Shown: in pieces, positions 4,594 to 42,936 of the stretch
Position numbering within the stretch: position 1 is the stretch's first letter
Layout: each line of letters begins with the position of its first letter
Assembly: GCA_964391455.1 (NCBI GenBank)
Contig: CAYMJQ010000002.1
Location: forward strand, 12,688-76,687
Length of the DNA: 64,000 bases
Reading direction: 5' to 3'
Origin: an uncultured Candidatus Saccharibacteria bacterium
GTDB taxonomy: Bacteria; Patescibacteriota; Minisyncoccia; Phycocordibacterales; DATDWN01
Notes under the pieces: generated by a model
Databases searched by the model: none
What the model was told of the DNA's origin: nothing
What the model saw: only the letters and a program-made list of their open reading frames with translations
Made by a program: the position numbers and the translations under genes

Positions 4594-4595
4594 AA

Positions 4596-6785: not shown

Positions 6786-6789
6786 ATTT

Positions 6790-7425: not shown

Positions 7426-7455
7426 AAAATTTATTATAACACAGTAAAATATAAT

Positions 7456-7890
7456 TTATTTTGTTTTTACACCACTTTTACTTGTTAAAGGATTTAAATT
7501 TTCATTTACATCCAATGACCAAGACATTTCTTTTAATTTACTATCAGAAAGTTTAGGAACGTATACTTGTTTTTGGCTTTTTATAACATCTTCTGTTTTT
7601 TGTATTTTTTTCTGTTCTTTTTTCCAAATATATAAATTTTGTTTGGTGTAAAAAACAAAAGCAGCTTCAAGAAAATCTATGAAAGGTTTGTTGTTTATTT
7701 TGTAAAATGCTAAAGCCAGTGATAGTGGGATTATTATTGCAATAATTAAAATACTTAATAGAAAAGGTAAATAATTGTATACAACAAAACACATGCCAAC
7801 ACCACCAGCTAAATAAACAAATTGTTTTATGGTGAAAGGTCCAACGATTTTGTCTTCTACATCTATAAATTGTGGGACTTGATATCGCAT
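7456..7890 (-). CDS. PrgI/VirB3-like small membrane protein
   Basis: The N-terminal motif MRYQVPQFIDVEDKIVGPFTIKQFVYLAGG is followed by two TM helices. This pattern and the position upstream of VirB4 match PrgI-family proteins. Confidence 0.55.
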   Translation of the reverse strand: MRYQVPQFIDVEDKIVGPFTIKQFVYLAGGVGMCFVVYNYLPFLLSILIIAIIIPLSLALAFYKINNKPFIDFLEAAFVFYTKQNLYIWKKEQKKIQKTEDVIKSQKQVYVPKLSDSKLKEMSWSLDVNENLNPLTSKSGVKTK

Positions 7891-7970
7891 GATTATAAAT
7901 TTTACAGTTTTTAGTTTCTGGTGACTAGTGGATATACAAAAACTAAAAATTAATTACTATATAAAAACAA

Positions 7971-8588
7971 TTATTCCAGCGGCTCTCTGTAAGGATCCTT
8001 TTCATATTTTTTAATTGATTCTGCGGAATTTGTTGTGGTGTTTAATTTTTTTTCTAATATAGGGTTTTGAATATTTGAACTTGCTTGTTGTCCATATCTA
8101 GGGACACCGATTGTTTGTTTGTCTAAAACTTCATTTTGAAATACTGGTTTTGGTACAGGATTAACTCTTAAAGGCTCATTTTCTTCTATCATAGGGAGGT
8201 TTTCAGGTTTTAACTCTAGCTGGGTACTAGAAGACATCAATTTTTCTTTGTTTTCGGTATTTTCTGATGAATTTTTTTCTAACCCTTCTTTTTCTATTTG
8301 TTTTAAAGCATGGTCAAACACTCTATTTTCTAAATCTTCCAAGATTTGTTCAGCAAGAAGTTTGGATATATTTAAGTCAGAAATCATATTTGATAAAAAA
8401 TTATTGGGTTTTTCTAGTCCAACTAAAATAAGTACAACAGAATCAGTCAAGTTGTTTGTTTGTTCTTCATTAAGTCCGTATTTTTTACATATTTCTATAA
8501 CTTTTTCTTCCCAATCACTATTAAAAACAAAATCTTTAATAGGCTTAGGTAGATTTTCTATGTAGTTATTGTATGTATTTTTGTCCAT
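7971..8588 (-). CDS. acidic hypothetical protein (T4SS-locus)
   Basis: A 205-aa Glu/Asn-rich protein with no TM segment, carried in the operon. Confidence 0.45.
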   Translation of the reverse strand: MDKNTYNNYIENLPKPIKDFVFNSDWEEKVIEICKKYGLNEEQTNNLTDSVVLILVGLEKPNNFLSNMISDLNISKLLAEQILEDLENRVFDHALKQIEKEGLEKNSSENTENKEKLMSSSTQLELKPENLPMIEENEPLRVNPVPKPVFQNEVLDKQTIGVPRYGQQASSNIQNPILEKKLNTTTNSAESIKKYEKDPYREPLE

Positions 8589-8591
8589 ATT

Positions 8592-10877: not shown

Positions 10878-10882
10878 TATGA

Positions 10883-12574
10883 TTATATTGGTCTAAATAT
10901 TGCCCAAACAGAACCATCAGCAGATACGATTCCAGAACAAGTTGGCTGTGTTCCAAATACCGCACAAGCTCCACCCCAACCAACAAAAGTGTGACCTATG
11001 CCTGGTGTTGCTGATATAGACTGGTGTGATCCTCTAGGATAGACTTTTGATATTGTTGTTGAAGCCATAGTAACTGAATTCAACTCATCTACTCCGTCGC
11101 TCAATGATCCTACACCTGAAACAGTAAATGTAACTGTGTATGTTCCAACACCTGGAAGAGGTGTTGGTGGTGCTGGGTTTTCGTGTCCGGCTGGGTTTCT
11201 GTTACAAGCACACTCAACCAACCAACCCCAACCACCTTCTGCTATAGAGTATTCACCGTCCGGACCTTCATTTCCAACAGCACCAATCATTACATCTACA
11301 ATCATTCCATTACCAAAATTAAACTTATCTAATCTTATTGGGTGTTCCATTAATTCTCCTCCAAATCTACTACTAATTATCGGAGCTGCTTGTCGCATAC
11401 CGTAATTAGAAGCGGGATAACCATTTAATACAGATAAAACAGCACTACTACTTACTGTTGTACAATCTACGTTTGGATCTGGTGTGTATGCTGGACAATG
11501 ACCACCACTTCCTCCACCAGCTCCTAGTGGCCAAGGAGGAAGACCTCCAACTGTTCCTGGGGTGCTTCTGCAGTTTGCTTGTCCACCATCTCCACCCCCA
11601 CCCCCACCATCTGGGTCACCACCATCTCCACCACTTCCACCTGTTGCTGTACAGTTTATGGATGGAGCCGTTGCTGTGATCCGGTAATTTGTTATTGGTT
11701 GTTGTTCATCTCTTAAACTATTAGTAAAAACTCTTCCGGAAGCATCTCTTTCACTTGAAGTAAATAAACTTCCAGCGCCCCCAACTATTTTTTCTACCAA
11801 TTGTGTAAGCAAGGCAGTAACTATTTCATTGAATTCATCAGCTGCATTTAATCTTTCCCAACTTGAACCAAGACTTCTTGATAATTGATCGTTTATAAGG
11901 ACCCCAGGGGTGGTTGTTATTTCTTCTTGAGTACATATTGTTTGTTGAGATATTGGATCAATCACCTCTGCGCCTCTAGGACATCTTTTTACGTTTAGAA
12001 AACCACCACTTAAATCTAATTCTCTTTGTCTTGTGGCTTGAGCTGCACTTATTCTCATAGATAAAGTGTTTTGGGCTTCGAGGTATGCTCCATAAGGGTT
12101 GTTTTGAGAGTTTTGAGTTAATTCAAACCATCCCTGCCAACCACCCTGAGAGAAATCTCTGGTAAAAGCCTCATAATTATTTCTAAGTATATCTAGTGTA
12201 CAGGTGTAATTCGTGGTGTCTGGGTTTATATAATTTTTAACCAAAGCCAGTCTTACTTGGGCGTTAAACGGTGCACATAATTGATTTACTCCTGCTTGAG
12301 ATAAGAAAGCGGAAGCAGTTTCGTCTCCTATATCTAAGAAAAATTGTCTAGGATTCTGTACATATAGAGGGTTTCCTTTAAAACCAGAGTTGATCCAGTT
12401 TACTGTTGTGGCGGTAAGTCTTTTTAATGCTATGGCTGAAACTTGGTAAGCAACTCCATCAAGGGCGAATTCTTTTAAATTTTGAGCAATATCTACATAC
12501 TGTGCGTTGGTTTTTACTGGAGAAGATAATGATAATAGTGATGCCATTATCATTATTAATAAAGTTTTTTTCAT
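10883..12574 (-). CDS. secreted Gly/Cys-rich protein (T4SS-locus)
   Basis: A 563-aa protein with a signal peptide. It has a poly-Gly/Asp tract (GGSGGDGGDPDGGGGGGDGG) and many Cys in the C-terminal half. Confidence 0.5.
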   Translation of the reverse strand: MKKTLLIMIMASLLSLSSPVKTNAQYVDIAQNLKEFALDGVAYQVSAIALKRLTATTVNWINSGFKGNPLYVQNPRQFFLDIGDETASAFLSQAGVNQLCAPFNAQVRLALVKNYINPDTTNYTCTLDILRNNYEAFTRDFSQGGWQGWFELTQNSQNNPYGAYLEAQNTLSMRISAAQATRQRELDLSGGFLNVKRCPRGAEVIDPISQQTICTQEEITTTPGVLINDQLSRSLGSSWERLNAADEFNEIVTALLTQLVEKIVGGAGSLFTSSERDASGRVFTNSLRDEQQPITNYRITATAPSINCTATGGSGGDGGDPDGGGGGGDGGQANCRSTPGTVGGLPPWPLGAGGGSGGHCPAYTPDPNVDCTTVSSSAVLSVLNGYPASNYGMRQAAPIISSRFGGELMEHPIRLDKFNFGNGMIVDVMIGAVGNEGPDGEYSIAEGGWGWLVECACNRNPAGHENPAPPTPLPGVGTYTVTFTVSGVGSLSDGVDELNSVTMASTTISKVYPRGSHQSISATPGIGHTFVGWGGACAVFGTQPTCSGIVSADGSVWAIFRPI

Positions 12575-19266: not shown

Positions 19267-20814
19267 CTAGTATTTCTTCGGTCTATATTGCAGTGCTTCC
19301 AACAAATGTCTTTCTAGGATTTTTTCTGATTCATCTAAGTCAGCTATAGTCTGAGCAAGTTTTATCACTCTATGGTAAGAACGAGCAGATAGATCGAGTT
19401 TTTTTGCAGATTCGTTTAAAAGTTTTTTTGTTCTTTCTTCCAATTGAATAGTTTTTACTAAATCTTTTGAAGAAAGTTCAGCGTTTGTTTTTATTTTTAG
19501 GTTTTTGAATCGATTTGCTTGTTTTTCTCTAGCTTTTTCTATTCTAGGTTTTATTTTTTCTGTTCCCTCGTGAAATTCTCTTCCTTCAGTTAATTTTTCA
19601 TATTCAACTTTACTTACCTCTACCCACATATCTATTCTATCCATTATTGGTCCAGAGAGTTTTCTTTTGTATTTTTCTATAGCAATAGCTGAACAAACAC
19701 ATTCTTTGCCTTTTGTTCCTAAATTACCACAAGGACAGGGATTCATGGTCGCTACCAAAATAAAATGAGCCGGATAACAAACACTTCCCTTGGCCCTAGA
19801 TATTGTAACAACTCTATCTTCTAGCGGTTGTCTTAATGACTCTATTACTTTTTTATCAAATTCTGGGAATTCATCTAGGAACAAAACTCCTTTGTGAGCA
19901 AGGGTTACTTCTCCTGGCTTTAGATTTGTTCCTCCTCCGACCAAAGAAACATAAGAAGCTGTATGGTGAGGAGATCTAAAAGGGGCTTCATTTATTATCC
20001 CATTTTTTAACATGCCTCCAATTGAGTAAATTGATGTTACTTCCAGCTTTTCATCAAAAGACAAATCTGGAAGTAGTTGCGAAAATGCTTTTGCGAGCAT
20101 GGTTTTTCCTGTGCCAGGCGGTCCATACATTATTATGTTGTGCCCACCAGCTGCAGCAATCTCTAACCCTCTTTTTGCTGACTCTTGTCCTTTTATATCT
20201 GCAAAATCTATGTCAATTTCTTTTTTGGGTTCATCTTTTTTATCTTTTATGTATACTTTTATTGTTTCTTTTTTAAGATTTTCGTTGTCTGAATCTTTTG
20301 TATTTATATGTTTTATTATTTCAAGTAAAGAGTTTGCTCCAAATATTTTTATTCCCTCTATGTTTGAGGCTTCCTCGGCATTTTCAATGGGTAAAAATAC
20401 TTCTTTAAACCCATCTTTTTTTGCTTGTTGCACTATTGGCAGAACTCCATTAACAGGTCTTAATTTCCCATCAAGAGAAAGTTCTCCTACAAAAATTTTA
20501 TTTTCTGTATCAGCTTCTACTTCTTCTGAAGCTATTAAATAAGCTATAGCTATGGGTAAATCAAAAAACGGACCTTCTTTTTTGATGTGGGCTGGGGCTA
20601 AAGAAACCACAACTTTCTGATTTTTATTTTTTGGTGATTTCCAACCAGAGTTTTTTATAGCTGAAGAAACTCTTTCTTTGGATTCATCTACAGATTTATC
20701 ACCAAGGCCTACTATTGAAAATGAGTGTAGTCCCCTAGATATATCTACTTCCAAATCTATTATTTGTGCGGATAGAAGGGATGTCTGTGCGGAATATATT
20801 TTTGATACGGCCAT
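19267..20814 (-). CDS. comM: YifB/ComM-family Mg-chelatase-like AAA+ ATPase
   Basis: The motif GPPGTGKTMLAKAF, a C-terminal Mg-chelatase ChlI-like domain and the characteristic 515-aa size. Confidence 0.85.
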   Translation of the reverse strand: MAVSKIYSAQTSLLSAQIIDLEVDISRGLHSFSIVGLGDKSVDESKERVSSAIKNSGWKSPKNKNQKVVVSLAPAHIKKEGPFFDLPIAIAYLIASEEVEADTENKIFVGELSLDGKLRPVNGVLPIVQQAKKDGFKEVFLPIENAEEASNIEGIKIFGANSLLEIIKHINTKDSDNENLKKETIKVYIKDKKDEPKKEIDIDFADIKGQESAKRGLEIAAAGGHNIIMYGPPGTGKTMLAKAFSQLLPDLSFDEKLEVTSIYSIGGMLKNGIINEAPFRSPHHTASYVSLVGGGTNLKPGEVTLAHKGVLFLDEFPEFDKKVIESLRQPLEDRVVTISRAKGSVCYPAHFILVATMNPCPCGNLGTKGKECVCSAIAIEKYKRKLSGPIMDRIDMWVEVSKVEYEKLTEGREFHEGTEKIKPRIEKAREKQANRFKNLKIKTNAELSSKDLVKTIQLEERTKKLLNESAKKLDLSARSYHRVIKLAQTIADLDESEKILERHLLEALQYRPKKY

Positions 20815-23685: not shown

Positions 23686-24615
23686 ATGGCTTCACTAAAA
23701 CAACTTAAACAACAATTTTTAGAATATGTTGAGATAGAAAGAGGTCGTTCTGTGAAAACAATAGAGAATTACGACCATTACCTATCGGTTTTTCTTGAAT
23801 TTTTAAAAAAAGATAAGCCTGAAGACATAACAGATGAAAATGTAAGGATGTTTCGTCTCTGGCTTAACCGTCGTCCTGTTGGTAAACATGGTCAAACAGT
23901 AACCAGAAAGACTCAGAACTATTATCTCATTGCCCTAAGGGCATTTTTGAAGTATCTAGCTAGGCAAGAGATAAAAACAATGCCAGCAGAAAGAATAGAG
24001 TTGGCGAAAACAACTGAAAGGTCTTTGGATTTAATAACCCAAGAAGAATTAAATAGGATTTTAGAGGCGCCCAATGGAAATGATGAAAAATCTTTAAGAG
24101 ATAAGGCTATACTAGAGCTTCTTTTTTCTACAGGTCTTCGTGTGTCGGAGCTATGTTCCCTACCTCGTGATATAAATCTTCGTTCGGATGAGCTTTCTGT
24201 GAAAGGTAAGGGTGGAAAAATAAGGGTAGTATTTTTATCAGAAGAAGCCAAAAGGTGTGTAAAAAATTATTTAGACAAAAGAAAAGATATGAACGACGGC
24301 CTTTTTGTGAGAATAAATCAAGATTTAGATAAAAAAGGTTCTAAAACAACAACAATAGATAAAAAAAATAATCTAGATAGAAGGTCTATAGAAAGAATAG
24401 TCAGGCATTACGCGATAAAAGCTGGTGTGTCTAAAAAAGTTACTCCTCATACATTAAGACATTTGTTTGCAACAGATTTACTTTCTAACGGAGCTGATTT
24501 GCGTTCAGTACAAGCACTTTTGGGTCACTCAAGTATTTCTACAACTCAAATATATACACATGTCACAGATAAACACCTGCGTGAAGTTCACAAAAAATTC
24601 CATAAAAAAAGTTAA
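23686..24615 (+). CDS. xerC: tyrosine site-specific recombinase XerC/XerD family
   Basis: The C-terminal catalytic motif HTLRHLFATDLL…LLGHSSISTTQIYTHV and an N-terminal SAM-like domain. Confidence 0.85.
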   Translation: MASLKQLKQQFLEYVEIERGRSVKTIENYDHYLSVFLEFLKKDKPEDITDENVRMFRLWLNRRPVGKHGQTVTRKTQNYYLIALRAFLKYLARQEIKTMPAERIELAKTTERSLDLITQEELNRILEAPNGNDEKSLRDKAILELLFSTGLRVSELCSLPRDINLRSDELSVKGKGGKIRVVFLSEEAKRCVKNYLDKRKDMNDGLFVRINQDLDKKGSKTTTIDKKNNLDRRSIERIVRHYAIKAGVSKKVTPHTLRHLFATDLLSNGADLRSVQALLGHSSISTTQIYTHVTDKHLREVHKKFHKKS

Positions 24616-25430: not shown

Positions 25431-25554
25431 TTATCCACAATATTTTTATAAAATGTCCTTTACATATTTTTATAAAAGACATAAACTTATTTCAGAACGC
25501 AGATTAAATGTCCGATACAATAAACCCTGTATTGGATTGACGTTCTGTAATAGT

Positions 25555-25785
25555 TCTTTTTTTTGGGAATCGGCCGAATTCCTCTCTTTTAGAAGACCCC
25601 CTGGTCTTCCCTGGGAAAGAGTGTAAACGAGCTCCTCACTATCTACTATATTTTTTTGAGCATTCGTTACTACCCCCTGCCCTAGTAAGTACTGGGTGGC
25701 CCTTCTCCAAACTACGCACATTTGTGCGCCCAACAGTCCCTAGATTTGCCTTCGTGAGATGGCTCTCTAATTGGGGCTGTTTTTT
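25555..25785. ncRNA. candidate structured small RNA in a GC-elevated convergent intergenic region (identity unresolved)
   Basis: A ~230-bp block is clearly richer in G+C than its surroundings. It lies between the 3' ends of xth and cca and has several local hairpins. Only spurious ORFs cover it. Confidence 0.25.
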
Positions 25786-27250
25786 ATTGTACGTAATGTT
25801 TTTTTCTAATTTTCTTTATTTCTATTTCATCCACTTCTTCCTTTATCATTTTCCCCTTTTCTCCTAATTCCCTTAATTTATTTTCTGGTAATTCCAACAT
25901 TTCTAAAGCTCTTTTTTCCATATATTCATCTGTGTTTTTACTAGGGTCCTCTAATACTTCTTCAAGAAGTGCGTGTAAAACAAAACCAACTTTCGGTCCA
26001 GGAGGAATTTTGCCTATTTCTATAATTTTTTTACCATCAATATTAAGCATTCCTACAGAAATCGGGTCACGGAGAGCTTCTTCAATCATTGAATGATATT
26101 TTCTGAGACGATAGGGGTCTTCTTTGGGTCTACCAGCTCCTATACGATCGCATATGCGTAGATTCATTAAATCCCATATATTTTCTCGTCCAACATTTAC
26201 AATCATTCTACGGACCGCAGAGAGCGTAATTTGCTCTGTGTCAGAGAAAAACATATGCCAGCGTATCATGGAAACAACTTTATCAATGATTTTTGTAGGA
26301 TATTTTAAATTTTCAAGAATTTTTTTAGTTTTTCTTGCTCCAAGAACTTCATGGCCAAAGAAAGTCCATTTTTTATTTTTCCCACCACCTCTTCTTGTTT
26401 CTGGTTTAGAAATATCATGAAAAAGTGCAGAAAGCCTTATTTCTAAAGGGTAATTTTTATCAGCTGAATGCTGTAGTGATCTAAGTAAGTGCTCCCAAAC
26501 ATCATAAGCATGTACTCCCCCTTGTTCCACCCCTACGGTTTCTAGTAGTTCAGGTGAAATATACTCTAGTAAGTTAAGTTTTTTAAGCATCAAAAGTCCC
26601 TTCATTGGGTTATCTGACATTACTATTCTAGTGAATTCATCTCTTATTCTTTCCTTTGATATATTTTTTAACAAAGATGAGCTTTCTAACATAGCTTTTT
26701 CAGTTTCTGGATGAATTTCAAAACTTAACTCAACAGAAAGTCTAATTCCCCTAATTATTCTAAGTCCATCTTCATTAAATCTTGATACAGGATCTCCTAC
26801 AGTTCTTATTAATTTGTCTTTTAAATCTTTTTCTCCACCATAAAGGTCAATAAATTCATTTTTAGATGTCGAATAGGCTAACGCATTCACAGTGAAATCT
26901 CTCCTTTTTAGGTCATCTTCTATTTTTTGGCTAAAAATAACGTTATTAGGATGCCTATTATCCAAATACTCCCCTTCTAATCTATACGGAGTTACCTCTA
27001 CCACTTTCAATGTTTCTTTTTCTACATTTTCATTTACAACTCCTACTGTACCAAAGGTATTTTCATAAAAAGTATTTGGGAACGAGGCTATTATCTGTTC
27101 TGGATTAGCATTTGTTGTTATATCCCAATCCTTCGGTTCCCTATCAAGCATAAGATCTCTCACGCAACCACCAACAAGAAAAGCTTCAAAGCCTTCTTTT
27201 TCTAGTTTTTTCGTTATGTTAGTTATTTCTTTTGGAATATTTAGTTTCAT
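25784..27250 (-). CDS. cca: CCA-adding tRNA nucleotidyltransferase / poly(A) polymerase family with HD domain
   Basis: An N-terminal GGCVRDLMLDREPKDWDITT nucleotidyltransferase head and a C-terminal HD domain. Confidence 0.8.
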   Translation of the reverse strand: MKLNIPKEITNITKKLEKEGFEAFLVGGCVRDLMLDREPKDWDITTNANPEQIIASFPNTFYENTFGTVGVVNENVEKETLKVVEVTPYRLEGEYLDNRHPNNVIFSQKIEDDLKRRDFTVNALAYSTSKNEFIDLYGGEKDLKDKLIRTVGDPVSRFNEDGLRIIRGIRLSVELSFEIHPETEKAMLESSSLLKNISKERIRDEFTRIVMSDNPMKGLLMLKKLNLLEYISPELLETVGVEQGGVHAYDVWEHLLRSLQHSADKNYPLEIRLSALFHDISKPETRRGGGKNKKWTFFGHEVLGARKTKKILENLKYPTKIIDKVVSMIRWHMFFSDTEQITLSAVRRMIVNVGRENIWDLMNLRICDRIGAGRPKEDPYRLRKYHSMIEEALRDPISVGMLNIDGKKIIEIGKIPPGPKVGFVLHALLEEVLEDPSKNTDEYMEKRALEMLELPENKLRELGEKGKMIKEEVDEIEIKKIRKKHYVQ

Positions 27251-27263
27251 CTAAATAAAATTG

Positions 27264-27335
27264 TGCTCTCGGTAGGAATCGAACCCACATCCACGGTTCC
27301 GAAGACCGGTACTCTATCCATTGAGCTACGAGAGC
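27264..27335 (-). tRNA. tRNA-Arg (anticodon UCG)
   Basis: I folded a cloverleaf by hand on the minus strand, read as gctctcg-ta-gctc…ccggt-cttcgga-accgt…gtggg-ttcgatt-cctac-cgagagc-a. It is 72 nt with one C-U mismatch at the top of the anticodon stem. Confidence 0.75.
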
Positions 27336-27369
27336 TTATTAATAATAACATGAAAAAGACAAAATTTTG

Positions 27370-27440
27370 TGCGGTCAGGGGTAATCGAAACCCCGACTGC
27401 TCCTTGGCAAGGAGCTGTTATACCACTTAACCATGACCGC
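27370..27440 (-). tRNA. tRNA-Gly (anticodon GCC)
   Basis: On the minus strand: gcggtca…gctcc-ttgccaa-ggagc…ggggt-ttcgatt-acccc-tgaccgc-a. It is 71 nt. Confidence 0.85.
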
Positions 27441-27679
27441 ATTATTTGATATTTACTATCATATAACAATTATTATAAAAATAAAAGCTTTTAATTTATC
27501 AGACAAAATTTTGTTCAATTGTGGATAACTCTGGGGACATGTGTATTAAAGACAAGTCTTTGACTATTGTCAAATTTAAGGACCTTATAGTACATATTTT
27601 TATTATATGGCTTAAAATAAGTCTATTTTTCAATAGACATGGCTATTAAAGGTCTGTTCTTTACGTTTTTTATAAAAGT

Positions 27680-27748
27680 TTCACGTGAAATATATAAAAT
27701 AGTTACATATGTAACAAATATTTATTTAGAATTGGTTACATATGTAAC
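27680..27748. promoter_or_regulatory. operator-like cluster: TTTCACGTGAAA palindrome plus two copies of the perfect 14-bp palindrome GTTACATATGTAAC
   Basis: The exact palindromes sit at 27680-27691, 27702-27715 and 27735-27748. Each 14-mer is followed by (A/C)AATATTTA. All lie upstream of the 27788 gene. Confidence 0.45.
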
Positions 27749-27787
27749 CAATATTTACTTATTTTAATATAGGAGTATATTTTCTTT

Positions 27788-28228
27788 ATGTTTAATAAAA
27801 AATTTCACAAAGAACCTACAGATAAACAGAAAATTGGCCAGATGGGAGAAGATATTGCCTGTAATTATCTTGAAAATAAAGGTTATAAAATAGTCGAGAG
27901 AAATTATCTAAAAAAGTGGGGAGAGATTGATATAGTTTCCAAAAAAAGCAATATAATTCATTTTGTTGAGGTAAAAGCAGTTACTAGGAATTTTGACAGT
28001 GTTACACATGTAACAAATAACGGTAATTATAAACATAATGACTCTTATAATCCCGAAGACAATATGCACCCTTGGAAACTCAAGAGGTTAACCAGAACAA
28101 TACAGTCATATTTGCTGGATAGAAGTGTTTCAGATGAAACAGAGTGGCAGTTTGATCTAGTTACTGTGTATATAGATTTAGATAAAGGACTTAATAGGGT
28201 AGAGGTTCTTGAAGACATTGTCCTATAA
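27788..28228 (+). CDS. YraN/UPF0102-like endonuclease-fold protein
   Basis: …GEDIACNYLENKGYKIVERNYLKKWGEIDIVSKKSNIIHFVEVKA… matches the YraN family pattern. The protein is longer (146 aa) with a C-terminal extension. Confidence 0.55.
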   Translation: MFNKKFHKEPTDKQKIGQMGEDIACNYLENKGYKIVERNYLKKWGEIDIVSKKSNIIHFVEVKAVTRNFDSVTHVTNNGNYKHNDSYNPEDNMHPWKLKRLTRTIQSYLLDRSVSDETEWQFDLVTVYIDLDKGLNRVEVLEDIVL

Positions 28229-28255
28229 TTCGAACTATTTCTTTGTGGTTCGAAA

Positions 28256-28645
28256 TTGTATAATTTAGATATGAAGGAATGTCGTTATTGTAAAAATAAA
28301 TATCCTGAGTCACATTTTGGAGTAGCACTCACCACTAAAGATAAAATTTATTATAGACATAAGTGTAAGTTTTGTTATCAAGAAACAAAAAAGAAGCTTC
28401 GAAGAAAGAATCAAGATTGGTTTCTTAATTTTAAGAAAAAGGGAAGGTGTAAATTATGTGGTAATAGTGATTATAGAGTTCTAGAGTTTCATCATTTATA
28501 TGAGAAGGATAAAGATTTTTCAATTGCTTATATGAGGAATAATAGTTTTAGTTTGGATAAAATGAGGCAAGAAATAAAAAAGTGTGCTATATTATGTGCT
28601 AATTGTCACAGGATTACACATTGGGAGAAAAACAGTTGGCAATAA
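28256..28645 (+). CDS. HNH endonuclease
   Basis: A Cys-rich 129-aa protein with the motifs EFHH…N…CANCHRITH. Confidence 0.65.
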   Translation: MYNLDMKECRYCKNKYPESHFGVALTTKDKIYYRHKCKFCYQETKKKLRRKNQDWFLNFKKKGRCKLCGNSDYRVLEFHHLYEKDKDFSIAYMRNNSFSLDKMRQEIKKCAILCANCHRITHWEKNSWQ

Positions 28646-28646
28646 A

Positions 28647-28718
28647 CGGAGTGTAGTGAAACGGCTATCATACCTGTTTTGGGAACAGGCGATCCGAGTT
28701 CGAATCTCGGCACTCCGA
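28647..28718 (+). tRNA. tRNA-Pro (anticodon UGG)
   Basis: cggagtg-ta-gtga…cctgt-tttggga-acagg-cgat-ccgag-ttcgaat-ctcgg-cactccg-a. It is 72 nt with a C1:G72 pair. It starts 2 nt after the HNH stop. Confidence 0.85.
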
Positions 28719-28783
28719 CAAGAGTTTTATGATAAACCGCCGACCTCACAAAGTGAGATTCGGCGGTTTGGTGGTAAGGTGTG

Positions 28784-28906
28784 CTAGGTGACTATCCCAG
28801 CATACCATTTTCCGGTTCGTCGCTTCCTGTTTGCAAATCGGTTTTTCCACTTGGCGTACTGAACGCCAGCGAAAAAAGCGATTACAAAAAGAACAATTTC
28901 TGTCAT
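28784..28906 (-). CDS. GC-rich 40-aa hydrophobic peptide with basic tail (type I toxin-like), SD-preceded
   Basis: My minus-strand translation is MTEIVLFVIAFFAGVQYAKWKNRFANRKRRTGKWYAGIVT. It is preceded by GGAGGG and 5 nt. It lies in a GC-rich structured block right after tRNA-Pro. Confidence 0.4.
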   Translation of the reverse strand: MTEIVLFVIAFFAGVQYAKWKNRFANRKRRTGKWYAGIVT

Positions 28907-28970
28907 TTTTCCCTCCATAAAAAATAGTACAACATATACTTTTTTTGTCAAAATATGTTATATTTCTAAA

Positions 28971-29267
28971 ATGCCGTTTATAAAAAATACAGAAAATTTT
29001 ATTTGTGAGAAGTGCGGTAATGAAGTAGTGGGGGATGGTTATACTAATCATTGCCCAGAATGTTTGTGGTCCAAACATGTAGATATTTATCCAGGGGATA
29101 GATTAAATACTTGTAAGGGTATGATGGAGCCGGTTGGAATAGAGAAGAAGGGGAGAGAATATAATATTTTACATAAATGCACCAAATGTGGTTTTGAGAA
29201 AACAAATAAGGCAAATAAAAATGATAATTTTCAAATGATAATTCAAGTCTCAGCTAATCCTAAATAA
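28971..29267 (+). CDS. small zinc-ribbon protein (CxxC…HCPEC…CTKC; RNHCP-like)
   Basis: A 98-aa protein with four Cys pairs. 'TNHCPECLW' resembles RNHCP-type ribbons. Confidence 0.45.
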   Translation: MPFIKNTENFICEKCGNEVVGDGYTNHCPECLWSKHVDIYPGDRLNTCKGMMEPVGIEKKGREYNILHKCTKCGFEKTNKANKNDNFQMIIQVSANPK

Positions 29268-29269
29268 AA

Positions 29270-30400
29270 TTATTTGATTAATTCATCAATTATCATTTTT
29301 GATAGTTCAGCTCCTTTTGTGTTTTGAAAGTTTTTTGCAAATTGTTCATGGTTTAGGTTTAAAAAACTTATCAAATCTAAAGATATTTCTTTTTGTAAGG
29401 ATCGGTTTATATATGGAGTTGTGATAGCATTCAAGTTTCTGGTACTAGTGGTTTCTCCATTTGAACTCGTGGTTATTATTCCAATAAGTAAAGAATTTTT
29501 ATCTACAACAAGCCCACCAGAAGAACCTTTTTGTGAGACTACAGTTCCTCCAACAGAGATTACATCAATAGTCTCTTCTTTAAAAGTAAATACATCTTGA
29601 ATATTAGTTATACTACTTACAATATTTAAATCTCTAAGTATTGATAGTCCTCCTAAAAATCCAGCAGGGTAGGAGGCGAGTAAGACCGGTTCTCCAATTT
29701 TAATATTTTCTCTAATACTCGGTTGTATATAAGGGATTGTTTCGTTTTTTGTAGGATTTAAAGTTTCTGTGATTCTTATAAACGCAAAATCATCTTTGCC
29801 TGTGCCTTGAGGGTCTTTGTCTTTTAATATCGCTTTATTTTCTTCTACCCAGTTTGGAGATATGTATACAAGTTCTAAATTGTATTTTGGGTATGCGGGA
29901 CTTCCTGTTCTACCTATACATTTTAGATAGTCCTTTTCTCCAAAATCTTTTAACAAAAAGTATTGTGCTATGTGTGCGTTGGTTAGGATTAAACCTTGTG
30001 AATTTATCAATACACCCGTGCCAGATATAGGGGATAGATCATTGTATTTTGTTGTACATAAAATATTTATTGTTGTTTTTCTAGCCTCAGTATTTATTTT
30101 TTCAAAATCTGGTAATGGTTCTGGTTCTATTTTGACTGGGATTTCTATTTTTTCTTCAATTTTTATTTCGGTTTTTGTTTCTGTTTTATTTGTATTTGTT
30201 TCTAAGTTTGGTCTTGGTACCAGGTTTGTTTCTTTTTCTGTGTTTTTAGTTGTTGTTGCCTTTGTTTCTACAACCGGTTCACTTATTGAAGTTTCTTTTT
30301 CTGGTGCTACATAAACAGGATCATTTGGAGACGTGTTGAATAATTGCCCAATGAATATTATCGGGGCGAATATGATAGAAATTATTGTCTTAATTAACAT
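29270..30400 (-). CDS. membrane-anchored trypsin-like (S1) serine protease
   Basis: An N-terminal TM helix, a Thr/Glu/Lys-rich linker, then a chymotrypsin fold (…TNAHIAQY…, …GSSGGLVVD…). No PDZ domain is visible. Confidence 0.7.
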   Translation of the reverse strand: MLIKTIISIIFAPIIFIGQLFNTSPNDPVYVAPEKETSISEPVVETKATTTKNTEKETNLVPRPNLETNTNKTETKTEIKIEEKIEIPVKIEPEPLPDFEKINTEARKTTINILCTTKYNDLSPISGTGVLINSQGLILTNAHIAQYFLLKDFGEKDYLKCIGRTGSPAYPKYNLELVYISPNWVEENKAILKDKDPQGTGKDDFAFIRITETLNPTKNETIPYIQPSIRENIKIGEPVLLASYPAGFLGGLSILRDLNIVSSITNIQDVFTFKEETIDVISVGGTVVSQKGSSGGLVVDKNSLLIGIITTSSNGETTSTRNLNAITTPYINRSLQKEISLDLISFLNLNHEQFAKNFQNTKGAELSKMIIDELIK

Positions 30401-30470
30401 TTTATGATTATAACATTAAGAAAAAAATAATTGCTGTAAACTGTTTTCTTTGGTAAGATACTCTTTAATT

Positions 30471-30541
30471 GCGGGATTAGTTTAGTGGTAGAATGACTGC
30501 CTTCCAAGCAGTATACACCAGTTCGATTCTGGTATCCCGCA
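30471..30541 (+). tRNA. tRNA-Gly (anticodon UCC)
   Basis: gcgggat-ta-gttt-agtggta-gaat-g-actgc-cttccaa-gcagt-atac-accag-ttcgatt-ctggt-atcccgc-a. It is 71 nt and very similar to bacterial tRNA-Gly(UCC). Confidence 0.85.
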
Positions 30542-30735
30542 CAAAATAAAATCCCCGAATGGGGATTTTATGTTGAGGATACCAGAATCGAACTAGATAG
30601 AGTTCGGGAAAGAAAGTCTTTCCCGTGGAGGAAGGCAACGAGCGGAGCGAGTGTTGGAAAACCGAGGGTTTCCAAGGAGTGAGATATCTGGTATCCCGCA
30701 CACGAGAAGCCCGAAAGGGCTTTTTATTGTGTGTG
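30542..30735. repeat. tRNA-Gly 3'-end-derived direct and inverted repeats framing a GC-rich structured element, with flanking terminator hairpins
   Basis: The 15-nt direct repeat ctggtatcccgcaca occurs at the tRNA 3' end and again at about 30684. An inverted near-copy of the T-arm and acceptor (gaggataccagaatcgaact) lies at about 30574. Hairpin plus T-run terminators sit at 30549-30572 and 30705-30730. Confidence 0.45.
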
Positions 30736-31273
30736 GAATAAGCAAAACATTGTTTTGCGTCCAGAATCGAAAGACGGAGCGGGTACCAGTTCAGCAGAAC
30801 TGGTCGTGAGTCGAGGTTGTTCTCTACAGTTTCATTTATTGTGTTATAATTTGGTAATTGTGAATACAATTACCTCCGGTCAAAAGTTTTTTTATAATTT
30901 AATTGCTAATGTAGTTTTTCTACTGCATTTATTTCTGGTTTTGGTGGTTTGTATTGGTTGGGCTTTTCCTTCTTTGTTTTATCTATTTTTATTTCTACTT
31001 TCAATAACAGCTCTTTCTGAAATTTTTCTAGGATATTGTATTTTAACTAAGTGGGAATTTAGTTTAAGAAAAAAAATTGATCCAAGTAGACAATTTGATA
31101 CATCATGCATATTTCATTATGGTAGAGCCATGTTCGGATTAGGACCAAGGGTTCCAACTAATAAAAAAGAAGCCGGATTTTTCAAAAAGTATTCATCACT
31201 TCTAGTGTTACTACTACCTTTATTAGGAGCTATTCTGGTTAAGTTTGGGCCAGGGACTTTACAAAATTTTTGA
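30731..31273 (+). CDS. small polytopic membrane protein resembling DUF2784 (C-x-LT-x-WE motif); N-terminus uncertain
   Basis: The C-terminal two-thirds (…LHLFLVLVVCIGWAF…SEIFLGYCILTKWEFSLRKK…) looks like a real membrane protein. The track start overlaps the tRNA-derived element, so the true start is probably an internal GTG or TTG (30806 or 30860). An extended -10 tgtgttataat lies at about 30841. Confidence 0.4.
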   Translation: MWNKQNIVLRPESKDGAGTSSAELVVSRGCSLQFHLLCYNLVIVNTITSGQKFFYNLIANVVFLLHLFLVLVVCIGWAFPSLFYLFLFLLSITALSEIFLGYCILTKWEFSLRKKIDPSRQFDTSCIFHYGRAMFGLGPRVPTNKKEAGFFKKYSSLLVLLLPLLGAILVKFGPGTLQNF

Positions 31274-31284
31274 TAGGAGTAATA

Positions 31285-31452
31285 TTTAACACGGAGGTTC
31301 ATCGGGGTCTAGCCACTGTGCTCAAGTCCACGCTAAGTGAAAACTGGTCCGGATTTTCCGGATAAAGGACCACAATAAATGTGGACTCGCGGTGCACTTG
31401 CACCCCAAAGAACACCGGCTGAGAGTTGCTTCGGCAGCTCTCAGCCTTTTAT
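31285..31452 (+). ncRNA. candidate structured RNA / elaborate 3'UTR ending in a UUCG-loop terminator
   Basis: A GC-elevated block with nested stems (agtccac…gtggact enclosing ggtccgg…ggacc). It ends in the ggctgagagttgc-ttcg-gcagctctcagcc hairpin plus T-run (31417-31452). A second, bidirectional terminator follows. Confidence 0.25.
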
Positions 31453-31457
31453 ATTAT

Positions 31458-31487
31458 CAAAAAACACCTTGTTACAAGGTGTTTTTT
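31458..31487. terminator. bidirectional intrinsic terminator (A-run, hairpin aacaccttg/caaggtgtt, T-run) ending hup
   Basis: The sequence aaaaaacaccttgttacaaggtgttttttg is visible. Confidence 0.55.
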
Positions 31488-31534
31488 GATTTCTTCTAGA
31501 AAAAATCAGACATCTGTGTCAGATTTAAGAACTT

Positions 31535-31807
31535 TTACTTAACGGCTTCTTTAAGAGCCTTAGCTGCTCTAAACTTAGGAACTTTCATCGCAGGAACAGA
31601 GATTGTTTCTCCTGTTCTTGGGTTTCTTGCTTGTCTTGCAGCTCTTGTCTTTGTTGAAAAGATTCCAAGACCGGCTATAGATACCTCACCACCTTTTTTA
31701 AGGGTGTTTACTATAGAATCTATTACTAAATCCACTACTTCTTCAGCTTGGACCTTTGTACTGCCCAATTTTTCATGTACCGCATCCACAATACCTGCTT
31801 TATTCAT
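31535..31807 (-). CDS. hup: DNA-binding protein HU
   Basis: A 90-aa canonical HU fold sequence (…GFGTFSTKTRAARQARNPRTGE…). Confidence 0.9.
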   Translation of the reverse strand: MNKAGIVDAVHEKLGSTKVQAEEVVDLVIDSIVNTLKKGGEVSIAGLGIFSTKTRAARQARNPRTGETISVPAMKVPKFRAAKALKEAVK

Positions 31808-39817: not shown

Positions 39818-41572
39818 ATGCACATAGAAGAATCACAGTTAAAAAATTTTATTTTGGATTCTGGTCTTGTTTCAAAGACAGATGTAGAGTCTGCTGAAAA
39901 AGAAGCAAAAGAAAACAATAGTAATATAGGAAAGATTCTTGTAAACAAAGGCAAACTTACAGAGGACGATCTTCGTCGTATGCAGGCATATATATTAGGT
40001 ATACCTTTTGTTGATTTAAAAAAAGAAAAATTACCTTTTGATGTCCTTTCTTTAATACCAGAACCAATTGCTAGAAACCATAATATAGTTGCTTTTAAAA
40101 AAAGCGATTCCGCTCTGGAGGTTGCCATGCTTGATACAGAAGATTTGACCGCTATTGATTTTGTAAAAAAGAAGACTGGTTTGAAAATTCTACCTAGACT
40201 GACCGATGATGATTCAATGAAGAGCGCTATTTTGCAGTATCAAAAAAGCCTTAAAGCTGAATTCGGAGATCTTATTGCGGAAGATGTGAGTAATATAAAA
40301 AATATTCCAAATGGAGATGGAGACGTTGATTTAAATGAACAAGACTTGAAGAAAATGGCAGATGATGTGCCAATGATAAGAATAGTTGATACCTTACTTA
40401 AACACGCTATTATTCAAAACGCTTCAGATATACACATAGAACCACAAGAAAAAGAACTTTTGATTAGATATAGAATTGATGGACTTTTGCATGACGCAAT
40501 GATTTTGCCTAAAAATATGGCACCTAGTGTTGTTGCTCGTATAAAAGTATTGTCTTCTCTTAAACTCGATGAAAAAAGACTTCCGCAAGATGGAAGATTT
40601 AAAATAGATTCAGATGGTGAAAAGGTTTCTTTTCGTGTTTCAACGCTACCAACTTATTATGGTGAAAAAATCGTGATGAGACTTTTACGTGAAAATGTAT
40701 CCGGATTTACTTTGGAATCTCTGGCCTTTCATGGTGAAGGTTTGGATAGGATACATAAAGCGGTTAAATCTACTACGGGGATGATTTTAACTACTGGTCC
40801 GACTGGTTCTGGAAAGACAACAACTCTTTATACTGTATTAGATATTCTAAATACTCCAGATGTAAATATATCTACCATTGAGGATCCTATTGAATATCAA
40901 ATGAAAAGAGTTAATCAAACTCAAGTTAGGCCAGAGATAGGTTTCACTTTTGCTTCTGGGCTTAGGACTTTAGTTAGGCAAGACCCAGATATTATCATGG
41001 TCGGTGAAATTCGTGATGGCGAAACAGCTTCACTTGCGGTTAACGCTGCACTTACTGGTCACGTAGTTCTTTCTACACTTCACACCAACTCAGCTGCAGG
41101 TGCTATACCCAGACTTATAGATATGAAAGTAGAACCTTTTCTTTTGGTGTCTACTATAAATATAATTATTGGACAAAGATTGGTAAGAAAATTAACAGAC
41201 CAAAAGGAAAAATATAATTTAACTAAAGCAGAAATAGACACTTTGGGTAAATCAATAAATCTAGATAAGGTTTTGGATGCCTTAAAATCAGAAAAGATAA
41301 TAGGTAAAAGTGATAAATGGGAAGACATATCTTTTTATCGTCCAAAAACAGGTGTTAATCCAGAGGAATGTTTTTCTGGAAGATCTGGTATTCACGAAAT
41401 ACTTAAAGTTTCTCCAGCTATCAAAGAAGCAATATTAAAATCTGGAACAACAGATGATATTCAAAAAATTGCTGAACAAGAAGGTATGTTAACAATGATG
41501 GAAGATGGAATTTTTCAAGCGGTGCAAGGGTATACCACCATCGAAGAAGTCTTACGTGTTATATCGGAATAA
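39818..41572 (+). CDS. pilB: type IV pilus / T2SS assembly ATPase (GspE/PilB family)
   Basis: The Walker A GPTGSGKTTTLY, the Asp and His boxes, an N-terminal GSPII_E_N-like domain, and a tetracysteine replaced region. Confidence 0.85.
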   Translation: MHIEESQLKNFILDSGLVSKTDVESAEKEAKENNSNIGKILVNKGKLTEDDLRRMQAYILGIPFVDLKKEKLPFDVLSLIPEPIARNHNIVAFKKSDSALEVAMLDTEDLTAIDFVKKKTGLKILPRLTDDDSMKSAILQYQKSLKAEFGDLIAEDVSNIKNIPNGDGDVDLNEQDLKKMADDVPMIRIVDTLLKHAIIQNASDIHIEPQEKELLIRYRIDGLLHDAMILPKNMAPSVVARIKVLSSLKLDEKRLPQDGRFKIDSDGEKVSFRVSTLPTYYGEKIVMRLLRENVSGFTLESLAFHGEGLDRIHKAVKSTTGMILTTGPTGSGKTTTLYTVLDILNTPDVNISTIEDPIEYQMKRVNQTQVRPEIGFTFASGLRTLVRQDPDIIMVGEIRDGETASLAVNAALTGHVVLSTLHTNSAAGAIPRLIDMKVEPFLLVSTINIIIGQRLVRKLTDQKEKYNLTKAEIDTLGKSINLDKVLDALKSEKIIGKSDKWEDISFYRPKTGVNPEECFSGRSGIHEILKVSPAIKEAILKSGTTDDIQKIAEQEGMLTMMEDGIFQAVQGYTTIEEVLRVISE

Positions 41573-41585
41573 TTCCAAATTCGGT

Positions 41586-41650
41586 GAATTTCTTGTTCCC
41601 AAATTAAAAATACTTACTCACAATTTTATTTTAAAACTATAAACTATTTA
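41586..41650. repeat. dispersed intergenic repeat, shorter copy C
   Basis: ccaaattcggtgaatttcttgttcccaa…attttaaaact matches the ends and left arm of copies A and B. Confidence 0.45.
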
Positions 41651-41724
41651 TTTTTATTTTGATAGAATGTATATAGTATGATTTTTTTTCTAACACTAAA
41701 AACTAGAAACTAACAATTGTTTAT

Positions 41725-42936
41725 ATGTTGTTTCATTACAAAATTTTAAATAAAGAAGGGAAGGTTGTGGAAGGTGAAATGGAAGCAAAGGATAAATTTG
41801 CCCTATATCATAGTCTTAAACAAGATGGCTCTACGGTTGTTTCAGCCAATGAAATAAAAGATAAAAAGGCAATAGAAATTCCATTTCTGGGAGCTTTGTT
41901 TGATAAGGTAAAAACAAGGGATAAAATAGTTTTTGCAAAAAATTTGGCAAAAATGACCGAAGCAGGTTTGCCGATTACCCGAGCACTTTCTATCTTAGAG
42001 CGTCAAGCAAAAGGCCAATTCAAAAAAGTTCTTGTCGGAATTAGTGATTCTATAAACAAAGGAAATACTTTAAGTGATTCCATGAAAGCTTATCCAAAAG
42101 TGTTTTCTACACTTTTTGTATCAATGGTTAAGGCTGGAGAAGAGTCTGGTAATCTATCTGTTTCATTGCAAAATGTTGGCGAGCAAATGGATAAATCATA
42201 TCAACTAACTAAAAAAGTTAGAGGAGCAATGATGTATCCGGCTGTAATCATTTCTCTTATGATTGTAATCGGTGTTCTAATGATGATTTACATGGTGCCA
42301 ACTCTTACCTCTACTTTTATCGGTCTTGGCGTAGAATTGCCATTATCAACTAGGATTATTATTTGGATTAGTGATTTTTTGAAATCCTATATTGTTTTTA
42401 TGGCTGTTGGACTTTTAATTTTTTCTTTTTTTGCCCTTTGGTGGTTAAGAACACAGAAAGGACAAAGATTGTTGGATTTTGTTTTTTTGCATATACCGGT
42501 GGTAAAAAATATTGTTAAACAAGTTAATTCTGCAAGAACAGCAAGAACATTATCTTCTCTTCTTTCGTCTGGGGTTGATATTGTGTTGGCAATAGGTATA
42601 ACAAGAGACGTTATACAGAATTCTTACTACAAAGAAGTTTTGTTAGAAATTCAAAACATAATCCAAAAAGGAGAACCAATATCAACTGTTTTTGCTGAAA
42701 ACAGTAATTTATACCCTCTTTTTGTAAGTGAAATGGTTTCAGTTGGTGAAGAGACCGGTAAAATAGGTGAGATGCTTTTGGGTATAGCAGTTTACTATGA
42801 AGATGAAGTAGATCAAAAAACTAAAGATTTATCATCAATCATAGAACCTGTAATTATGATTTTTATAGGTGTTGGAGTTGGATTTTTTGCGATTTCGATG
42901 CTTGGACCGACTTACTCTCTGGCAGACGCCCTTTAA
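41725..42936 (+). CDS. pilC: type IV pilus / T2SS inner-membrane platform protein (GspF/PilC family)
   Basis: Two T2SS_F repeats and 3 TM helices; 403 aa. Confidence 0.8.
   Translation: MLFHYKILNKEGKVVEGEMEAKDKFALYHSLKQDGSTVVSANEIKDKKAIEIPFLGALFDKVKTRDKIVFAKNLAKMTEAGLPITRALSILERQAKGQFKKVLVGISDSINKGNTLSDSMKAYPKVFSTLFVSMVKAGEESGNLSVSLQNVGEQMDKSYQLTKKVRGAMMYPAVIISLMIVIGVLMMIYMVPTLTSTFIGLGVELPLSTRIIIWISDFLKSYIVFMAVGLLIFSFFALWWLRTQKGQRLLDFVFLHIPVVKNIVKQVNSARTARTLSSLLSSGVDIVLAIGITRDVIQNSYYKEVLLEIQNIIQKGEPISTVFAENSNLYPLFVSEMVSVGEETGKIGEMLLGIAVYYEDEVDQKTKDLSSIIEPVIMIFIGVGVGFFAISMLGPTYSLADAL

Follow-up and report, generated by a model that had tools for sequence, protein, structure and literature searches.

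A parS-like palindrome cluster at the conserved cca-tRNA-yraN locus of an uncultured Patescibacteria genome, and a sporadic HNH gene at its tRNA-Pro

The window analysed here is a 64-kb stretch (64,000 nucleotides of contig CAYMJQ010000002.1) from the genome of an uncultured member of the Patescibacteria, and our subject is the part of it that runs from the gene for the CCA-adding enzyme (cca) and its neighbouring tRNA genes, through the nuclease gene yraN and a small HNH gene, to tRNA-Pro(TGG) and a zinc-ribbon gene beyond. An earlier note on this DNA had read positions 27441-28960 as a tRNA-flanked defence or selfish island under a triple-palindrome operator. The tRNAs, palindromes, open reading frames (ORFs) and GC-rich block that it listed are all present at slightly shifted coordinates, and its calls of YraN, HNH, RNHCP and the flanking tRNAs are correct by Pfam, NCBIfam, PHROG and ARAGORN. 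The RNHCP gene, which it had placed inside the island, does exist but lies at 28971-29267, just beyond the island's end; absent from the note were a fifth family palindrome, GTTTCAGATGAAAC, in yraN and a perfect DnaA box at 27520-27528. The framework of the locus and its palindromes are as follows.

27263-27335, minus strand: tRNA-Arg(TCG), by ARAGORN and Rfam
27369-27440, minus strand: tRNA-Gly(GCC), by ARAGORN and Rfam
27678-27691, no strand: parS site GTTTCACGTGAAAT, its 12-mer core TTTCACGTGAAA at 27679-27690
27702-27715, no strand: variant palindrome GTTACATATGTAAC, copy 1, perfect
27735-27748, no strand: variant palindrome GTTACATATGTAAC, copy 2, perfect, 33 bp from copy 1
27788-28228, plus strand: yraN (UPF0102, a PD-(D/E)xK nuclease), Pfam 8e-20, NCBIfam YraN 1.4e-27
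28001-28014, no strand: in-ORF variant site GTTACACATGTAAC, one mismatch to GTTACATATGTAAC, encoding VTHVT in yraN
28127-28140, no strand: in-ORF parS-like site GTTTCAGATGAAAC, inside yraN, encoding VSDET
28229-28645, plus strand: HNH cassette, a short promoter-like leader and a 124-amino-acid ORF at 28271-28645
28647-28719, plus strand: tRNA-Pro(TGG), by ARAGORN and Rfam; conserved, and presumably what the HNH element targets or is anchored to
28971-29267, plus strand: RNHCP-domain zinc-ribbon protein, Pfam 7e-29, syntenic in the window's clade
30471-30542, plus strand: tRNA-Gly(TCC), by ARAGORN and Rfam

The palindromes are real and exceed chance, and the two perfect copies of GTTACATATGTAAC are 33 bp apart, as had been claimed. 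At one mismatch or fewer, TTTCACGTGAAA occurs at two sites in the 64 kb against 0.32 expected, and for GTTACATATGTAAC at up to two mismatches the expectation is 0.37 per window; these expectations of 0.3-0.4 come from dinucleotide-preserving shuffles of the window. The second GTTACATATGTAAC copy extends to a perfect palindrome of 22 bp, and both copies belong to a direct repeat of roughly 32 bp. When the window is scanned with the family pattern GTTWC-N4-GWAAC, five sites (at 27678, 27702, 27735, 28001 and 28127) fall within 460 bp and none in the other 63.5 kb, with shuffled sequence giving 0.28 per 64 kb. To our knowledge, the boxes of LexA, NrdR, Rex, CodY and Fur are unlike these palindromes in arm sequence or spacing. 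A dif/Xer site was considered and set aside, given a central spacer of 2-4 nt rather than 6 and a skew polarity of the origin type (negative to positive).

What the sites do resemble is parS. The universal chromosomal parS consensus TGTTNCACGTGAAACA, with its core GTTTCACGTGAAA, is the loading site of ParB/Spo0J (PMC7022226), and two of the five sites, AGTTTCACGTGAAATA (27677-27692) and TGTTTCAGATGAAACA (28126-28141), each match that consensus at 14/16 positions. The three GTTACAYRTGTAAC sites match parS at only 10-11/14 core positions, and the variant type GTTACATATGTAAC departs from it at one symmetric arm position (GTTAC...GTAAC for GTTTC...GAAAC) and in the central dinucleotides. The cluster thus shares with known ParB/Spo0J loading sites an identical palindrome core GTTTCACGTGAAA, the presence of several copies in a few kilobases, some of them in coding sequence, a position in a zone where the GC skew changes sign, and perfect 16-mers in relatives. 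It differs in that three of the five window sites carry the symmetric T-to-A change together with a central CG-to-YR change, a variant absent among those listed in PMC7022226, and in lying at cca-tRNA-yraN rather than at parAB, with no ParB gene in the window or in the 80 related loci described below.

The relatives with which the window was compared are 80 loci fetched through the adjacent CCA-adding enzyme gene (CCA identity 79% to 52%), with flanks of up to 10 kb on each side of cca; all are Patescibacteria, namely Paceibacteria/Parcubacteria, including Zambryskibacteria, Nomurabacteria and others. Among them, too, the family sites are confined to the locus, with 197 of 201 lying within 2 kb on either side of the cca start and only 4 in the remaining roughly 900 kb. 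The 12-mer core lies upstream of yraN in 37 of these loci and is found 63 times in 1.29 Mb, where about 0.15 copies would be expected by our own estimate from base composition, and several relatives have the perfect parS 16-mer. A second site follows the parS site in relatives, and in distant ones it grades into a degenerate parS (GTTTCATCTGAAAC, GTTTCAGGTGAAAC, GTTTTACATGAAAC). The sites occur in the spacer, inside yraN and inside cca, and one clade has them downstream of cca and not upstream of yraN; the palindromes are therefore not linked to that gene's promoter.

The sites embedded in yraN are held in place as DNA. Across relatives the majority codon accounts for 94% at the ten codons that make up the in-ORF sites and for 65% at 96 other comparable yraN codons (Mann-Whitney p = 6.5e-6), and the position of these sites is conserved while their type co-varies with that of the intergenic sites upstream. 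At the first of them the encoded amino acids follow the palindrome type that the clade has upstream: the window's own clade reads VTHVT, corresponding to GTTACACATGTAAC, and other relatives have VTRET or VSRET. We conclude that the in-ORF sites are under selection at the DNA level.

The earlier note had taken the repeated palindromes for the binding sites of a dimeric repressor. Palindromic protein-binding sites they do seem to be, but their confinement to one locus and their extension into coding sequence are unlike a promoter operator, and the regulon that was to follow from them is missing, since there is no family site at any other promoter in the 64 kb, those of comM, comEC and pilB included. 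A version of this idea is that a dedicated dimeric transcription factor represses yraN, for example within a competence or DNA-damage regulon, and that the likeness to parS is coincidental or ancestral. Its strength is the geometry at the promoter: the variant palindrome of many relatives is followed, about 17 nt further on, by a conserved TATAAT that itself stands 6-8 nt before the yraN ATG, and the 33 bp between the two perfect copies are about three helical turns. In one relative where yraN has moved relative to cca (L045), moreover, the DnaA-box block described below is still about 390 nt upstream of yraN in the same orientation, and the lack of a nearby ParB gene in the window and the 80 loci fits this idea as well. 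Nevertheless, the first palindrome is the exact universal parS core across 37 or more genomes, the forms grade continuously from parS to the variant, sites are also found within the coding sequences of yraN and cca and, in one clade, downstream of cca, and no second promoter in the window carries one that could make up a regulon. We consider an operator for yraN improbable.

Taken as a whole, the locus is best explained, with a probability of about three in four, by a parS-family, centromere-like cluster of palindromes that is not a promoter operator and that lies in conserved core chromosome, probably near the replication origin, into which the HNH gene and an orphan block have come as strain-specific additions. 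According to this interpretation, ParB dimers would load at the five parS-family sites and mark the origin region for segregation, and bound ParB might also dampen the adjacent and probably leaderless yraN promoter. Several observations weigh against it. Neither tblastn with Spo0J and Soj probes nor a scan for the GERRxRA motif detected a gene for ParB or ParA in the window or the 80 loci (up to 10 kb on each side of cca). The GTTAC...GTAAC type differs from parS in both arm and centre and could be read by another protein, and the variant site of several relatives runs into the -35 region of the yraN promoter, a placement that would also suit an operator.

The spacer that holds the first three palindromes also holds the DnaA box missing from the earlier note, and together with a second box on the far side of cca it raises the question of whether this is a replication origin (oriC). 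The features concerned are these.

25431-25783, plus strand: conserved non-coding spacer between the convergent genes xth and cca, opening with a perfect DnaA box TTATCCACA at 25431-25439
27517-27568, plus strand: nearly invariant 50-nt block, from an alignment of 17 relatives
27520-27528, plus strand: perfect DnaA box TGTGGATAA, from a scan of the window
27532-27540 and 27540-27548, plus strand: degenerate box-like 9-mers TGGGGACAT and TGTGTATTA, respectively
Within 27517-27568: inverted repeat AAAGAC-AA-GTCTTT

The 50-nt block lies 150 bp upstream of the palindrome cluster and retains 85-89% identity by blastn in distant relatives, where its boxes read TGTGGATAA-ACT-TGTGGATTA-TGTTTATAA. Its perfect box and that at 25431 are the only two in the 64 kb. 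Of the 119 perfect boxes in the 80 loci, 94 occupy one or other of these two positions, with a constant orientation at each, and the rest are accounted for by chance; boxes in the orientation of the one at 27520 lie 0 to +2 kb from the cca start in 59 of 74 cases, and those in the orientation of the one at 25431 accumulate just past the cca stop in relatives. After its box, the xth-cca spacer continues with an inverted repeat, ATGTCCTTT...AAAGACAT, and then a stretch of roughly 220 nt at 50% GC that folds well (z-scores -4.9 and -4.5). More than 20 relatives share the spacer of about 350 bp, and Rfam has no match between 25350 and 25850; this may be an undescribed non-coding RNA or else an origin's left half. 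The GC skew of the window passes from negative to positive, the polarity of an origin, between about 22 and 40 kb, a zone that includes both boxes and the site cluster. In relatives the skew at third codon positions (GC3) changes sign at the locus whichever strand the genes are on, and with the central genes excluded 27 of 37 loci have the higher value on their right side (p = 3e-4, for loci that are not phylogenetically independent).

The DnaA-box block and the box on the far side of cca thus make the locus a candidate oriC or DnaA-binding locus. Like bacterial origins with tandem DnaA boxes and those split by a gene (PMC8287927), it has a perfect box with degenerate boxes of like orientation close behind it, a further conserved box cluster across an intervening gene, AT-rich flanks, an adjacent parS cluster and a change of skew in the zone; unlike them, it is not beside dnaA, has no DnaA-trio that could be called, lies 12 kb from the skew minimum and has cca plus tRNAs as its intervening gene. 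Several findings weigh against a firm call. The cumulative skew of the window reaches its minimum at about 39.6 kb, at the nusA/pilB strand switch, the nearest relatives show no skew flip in their flanks, and the raw cumulative skew, which is confounded by gene strand, has its minimum at the locus in only 17 of 32 loci. We found no dnaA in the window; the sequence to either side of the boxes, read by eye, gave no convincing DnaA-trio, and no unwinding element could be called. Finally, rnpA and yidC, classic neighbours of dnaA and oriC in the usual bacterial gene order, lie 26 kb to the left, near the window start. A probe for DnaA domain IV matched a coding segment in one relative (L050, 1438-1623), about 8 kb from yraN, and found no dnaA in the other 79 loci or the window.

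A competing account of the same block is that it is a DnaA-regulated promoter, serving either yraN or a short transcript that ends at the AGACA...TGTCTGTTTTTT hairpin, and that the true oriC is some distance from the parS cluster, for instance close to dnaA or where the strand switches between nusA and pilB (about 39.6 kb). The block does contain the -10-like hexamers TATTAA and TAAAAT, with a conserved hairpin and T-run downstream; the skew minimum and the gene-strand switch coincide at 39.6 kb, rnpA and yidC are at the window start, and dnaA is not adjacent. This account has more difficulty with the two conserved perfect boxes, which in most relatives face each other across cca in fixed orientation, with the GC3 skew flip at the locus across the lineage, and with the nusA/pilB spacer, which we tried as an origin and which is without a good DnaA box. 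We regard a DnaA-regulated promoter as a serious contender that nonetheless has the odds somewhat against it, and the claim that the locus is oriC itself as close to an even bet, on the unfavourable side. Greater confidence can be placed in the broader proposal that this is an origin-proximal locus that would be bound by DnaA and ParB.

The gene order around these sites decides the fate of the island proposal. By tblastn and ARAGORN, cca, tRNA-Arg(TCG)/tRNA-Gly(GCC), yraN, tRNA-Pro(TGG) and tRNA-Gly(TCC) keep their order in essentially all loci that have sufficient flank, about 65 Paceibacteria relatives, and over the full set of 80 the order of genes and tRNAs is unchanged down to 55% CCA identity. 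The genes for tRNA-Arg(TCG) and tRNA-Gly(GCC) adjoin cca in essentially all relatives, in varying orientation, and yraN is syntenic in nearly all relatives with enough upstream flank (66 loci analysed); RNHCP and a trypsin-like protease, between tRNA-Pro(TGG) and tRNA-Gly(TCC), are kept in the window's own clade. Because its genes and tRNAs are syntenic across the lineage, the interval is conserved core chromosome and not a defence island: yraN, RNHCP and the tRNAs do not show the presence/absence variation that marks a genomic or defence island, and only the HNH gene and the GC-rich block vary between strains.

Such a comparison of the tRNA-flanked interval in relatives had been suggested in the earlier note, and the conservation of the interval with its genes across the lineage tells against the island that it proposed. 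That proposal, in which YraN, HNH, a toxin peptide and RNHCP were acquired horizontally as a mini-island and act together, could draw on the nuclease-type domains, the sporadic HNH gene, the strain-specific GC-rich block and a variable hot spot of 11-1639 bp between tRNA-Pro and RNHCP. It is countered by the synteny of YraN and all four tRNAs across the class and of RNHCP in the window's clade, by the known core role of YraN and by a peptide without homologues. PADLOC returned noise only as defence proteins (best E about 0.01, 12-14 bits), and no integrase ORF and no tRNA-derived (att-type) direct repeat were found in the interval. For the interval as a whole we judge this reading very improbable indeed and, on the conserved gene order, already refuted; the word defence has to go, and selfish may be kept for the HNH cassette of about 420 bp alone. 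Within the conserved order, the Arg-TCG, Gly-GCC, Pro-TGG and Gly-TCC tRNA genes invert individually between close relatives (L003-L081, from cca to RNHCP).

The family assignment of yraN itself holds. The protein matches PF02021 with 71.4 bits against a cut-off of 23.6, and several NCBIfam YraN models match it (best 1.4e-27), all below their equivalog cut-offs. YraN was described as a ComM-partnered endonuclease that resolves the transformation D-loop (bioRxiv 10.1101/2024.02.06.579203). With the proteins of that study the window protein shares the Pfam/NCBIfam match, an EID...VEVK motif and the presence of a ComM-like gene in the window; it differs by an insertion of roughly 30 amino acids and by the two parS-family sites embedded in its coding sequence. 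The ComM-like gene, of the Mg-chelatase family, is at 19267-20814, 7 kb from yraN, and transformation genes are spread across the 64 kb, with PilB/PilC and pseudopilins, RecJ and ComEC (39818-42936, 50348-52090, 53055-54536) in addition to this helicase. The window thus holds ComM-like, PilB, PilC, ComEC and RecJ genes, and yraN is therefore a core gene in a genome equipped for DNA uptake, a housekeeping nuclease for transformation D-loops. Its ATG is preceded at 6 nt by the -10-like TATATT. In both yraN and the HNH gene such hexamers (TATATT, TATAAT) stand 6-8 nt before the ATG, with no convincing Shine-Dalgarno sequence in relatives (27765-27790, 28255-28273), and their closeness to the start codon suggests that both genes may have leaderless mRNAs.

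The element that does behave as a selfish one is the HNH gene. The earlier note had it end 2 nt before tRNA-Pro; it does adjoin that tRNA, but its stop codon ends 1 nt before it. Pfam HNH recognises the protein at only 0.06, and PHROG phrog_2255, annotated as HNH endonuclease, matches along its whole length at 2e-31. It has an N-terminal Cys4 zinc ribbon and an intact HNH/Cys4 (beta-beta-alpha-metal) core, with C4, C7, C32, C35, C60, C63, H74, H75, C109, N111, C112, H113 and H117 invariant in the alignment. Its family numbers about 210 unannotated proteins, about 120-130 amino acids long, and those with a source name are from Patescibacteria. At the yraN locus the gene is sporadic: it is present in the window and in L016, L019 and L051, and absent from sister loci such as L012. 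The gap between yraN and tRNA-Pro is about 420 nt in carriers, as against about 50-120 nt in most relatives of the window's clade that are without it. L012 is the same as L019 up to the yraN stop, and beyond that point L019 has the HNH cassette and a divergent tRNA-Pro allele.

Elsewhere the association with tRNA-Pro recurs. Besides the window, 14 of 15 contexts have the ORF ending between 12 nt before and 10 nt inside the 5' end of tRNA-Pro(TGG), and the fifteenth adjoins tRNA-Arg(TCT); the contexts are the yraN locus, a cluster of rplS and tRNA genes, a genome that contains Tic22, a RecQ context and a marine phage-like tRNA array. Where the genes overlap, the HNH stop codon consists of the tRNA's own nucleotides 8-10, TAG. 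In Synechococcus phage S-CAM3 the annotated HNH endonuclease gene likewise shares 10 nt with tRNA-Pro-TGG, and a homologue in a Klebsiella phage overlaps tRNA-Lys. In IMG/VR, 16 of 38 full-length relatives of the HNH protein adjoin a tRNA on the same strand, versus 2 of 42 generic HNH matches. More distant members (31-38% identity) stand immediately 5' of tRNA-Arg(TCG), between cca and tRNA-Gly, in L066, L078 and L015, and judging from these placements the sub-families seem to have different tRNA partners.

Because it is sporadic, has a fixed insertion point in a universally conserved target and comes with co-replaced flanking DNA, the HNH gene is probably a free-standing homing endonuclease. 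It would spread by cutting HNH-less alleles near the tRNA-Pro gene and then being copied in during repair. Against this, no consistent difference that would confer immunity was seen between HNH-plus and HNH-minus tRNA-Pro alleles. The closest described analogue is SegB of phage T4, a free-standing GIY-YIG homing endonuclease between tRNA-Arg and tRNA-Ile (PMC2988022). Both are small stand-alone nuclease genes among or beside tRNA genes, sporadic among close relatives, with flanking DNA co-replaced (here in L019, with its HNH gene and different tRNA-Pro allele). The window gene differs in being HNH rather than GIY-YIG, in residing in a bacterial chromosome as well as in phages, and in its position, which is fixed at the 5' end of tRNA-Pro(TGG) with the ORF often ending in tRNA nucleotides 8-10. 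In the literature searched we found no description of an HNH family that targets tRNA-Pro, and the junctions suggest that this one may target the 5' end of tRNA-Pro(UGG) across phages, Patescibacteria and other bacteria.

The second strain-specific element follows the tRNA, and comprises the features below.

About 28720-28960, no strand: strain-specific GC-rich block of 250 bp downstream of tRNA-Pro
28733-28770, no strand: strong hairpin AAACCGCCGA...TCGGCGGTTT, -22.7 and -24 kcal/mol, z -4.7 and -6.1
28784-28906, minus strand: orphan ORF of 40 amino acids, MTEIVLFVIAFFAGVQYAKWKNRFANRKRRTGKWYAGIVT, with a GGAGGG Shine-Dalgarno sequence and a TTGACA-16-TACTAT promoter-like site

The high GC content reported earlier holds, at 43-50% over 28650-28880 versus about 30% locally. 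The hairpin is terminator-like and positioned as a bidirectional terminator would be, and the block's minus-strand RNA is structured beyond chance (z -4.7). No counterpart of the block was found in the 80 relatives, whether as DNA or, by tblastn for the peptide, as protein; phage DNA gave no match, and the peptide has no homologue among 5.8 billion proteins. The description of this peptide as toxin-like comes down to a hydrophobic 40-residue ORF, with a hydrophobic N-terminus and a basic tail; neither a homologue nor an antisense partner of the kind that goes with a type I toxin was identified. We therefore treat the block as an orphan and the name toxin as an unsupported guess. The block sits in a variable hot spot downstream of tRNA-Pro: the gap from there to RNHCP measures between 11 and 1639 bp, and the ORFs that it contains in other genomes are unrelated.

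Several other features of the window deserve mention. From 27200 to 31700, Rfam at gathering and permissive thresholds returns tRNAs only. Two further GC-rich non-coding stretches (46-54% GC), neither with an Rfam match, lie at 30543-30900 and 31300-31450; the former comes after tRNA-Gly(TCC), and part of it is conserved in L026, L009, L012 and L008. Adjoining rnpA and yidC is a cluster resembling a type IV secretion system (T4SS; window 1359-12574, minus strand), in which two ORFs share between them a VirB4/TraG-type P-loop ATPase, alongside a PrgI-like protein, a T4SS pilin-like protein and a number of large ORFs without a family match. A gene for a XerC/D-type tyrosine recombinase is at 23686-24615, 3 kb from the DnaA-box/parS region, and no dif-like site was recognised nearby.

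One further possibility would unite most of these observations. In this combined proposal cca-tRNA-yraN is the origin and centromere of the Paceibacteria, a class within the Candidate Phyla Radiation, located apart from dnaA and split by cca with boxes facing each other, its parS sites being of two types (GTTTC...GAAAC and GTTAC...GTAAC) that reach into yraN, the second of them perhaps read by a ParB paralogue or a relaxed ParB; separately, an HNH family targets the 5' end of tRNA-Pro(UGG). We advance it tentatively, as the less probable outcome. The elements all fall in known classes, namely parS, DnaA boxes and free-standing homing endonucleases, and in the literature searched we found no paper on Patescibacteria origins or segregation sites. 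The details that appear to be undescribed are the variant palindrome type, the sites embedded in yraN and the fixed HNH-tRNA-Pro(UGG) junction common to phages and bacteria.

For annotation, the lesson is that a nuclease, tRNAs and palindromes are together too little on which to name a defence island. In yraN, the frozen synonymous sites offer a clean case of a DNA-binding code laid over a protein code, and the association of the HNH gene with tRNA-Pro points to a small selfish element that passes between phages and distant bacteria by way of a universally conserved tRNA gene. The locus would also provide concrete targets for experiments on ParB and DnaA binding. Patescibacteria are almost entirely uncultured, and a conserved landmark of DnaA boxes and parS sites would help to orient and close their metagenome assemblies.

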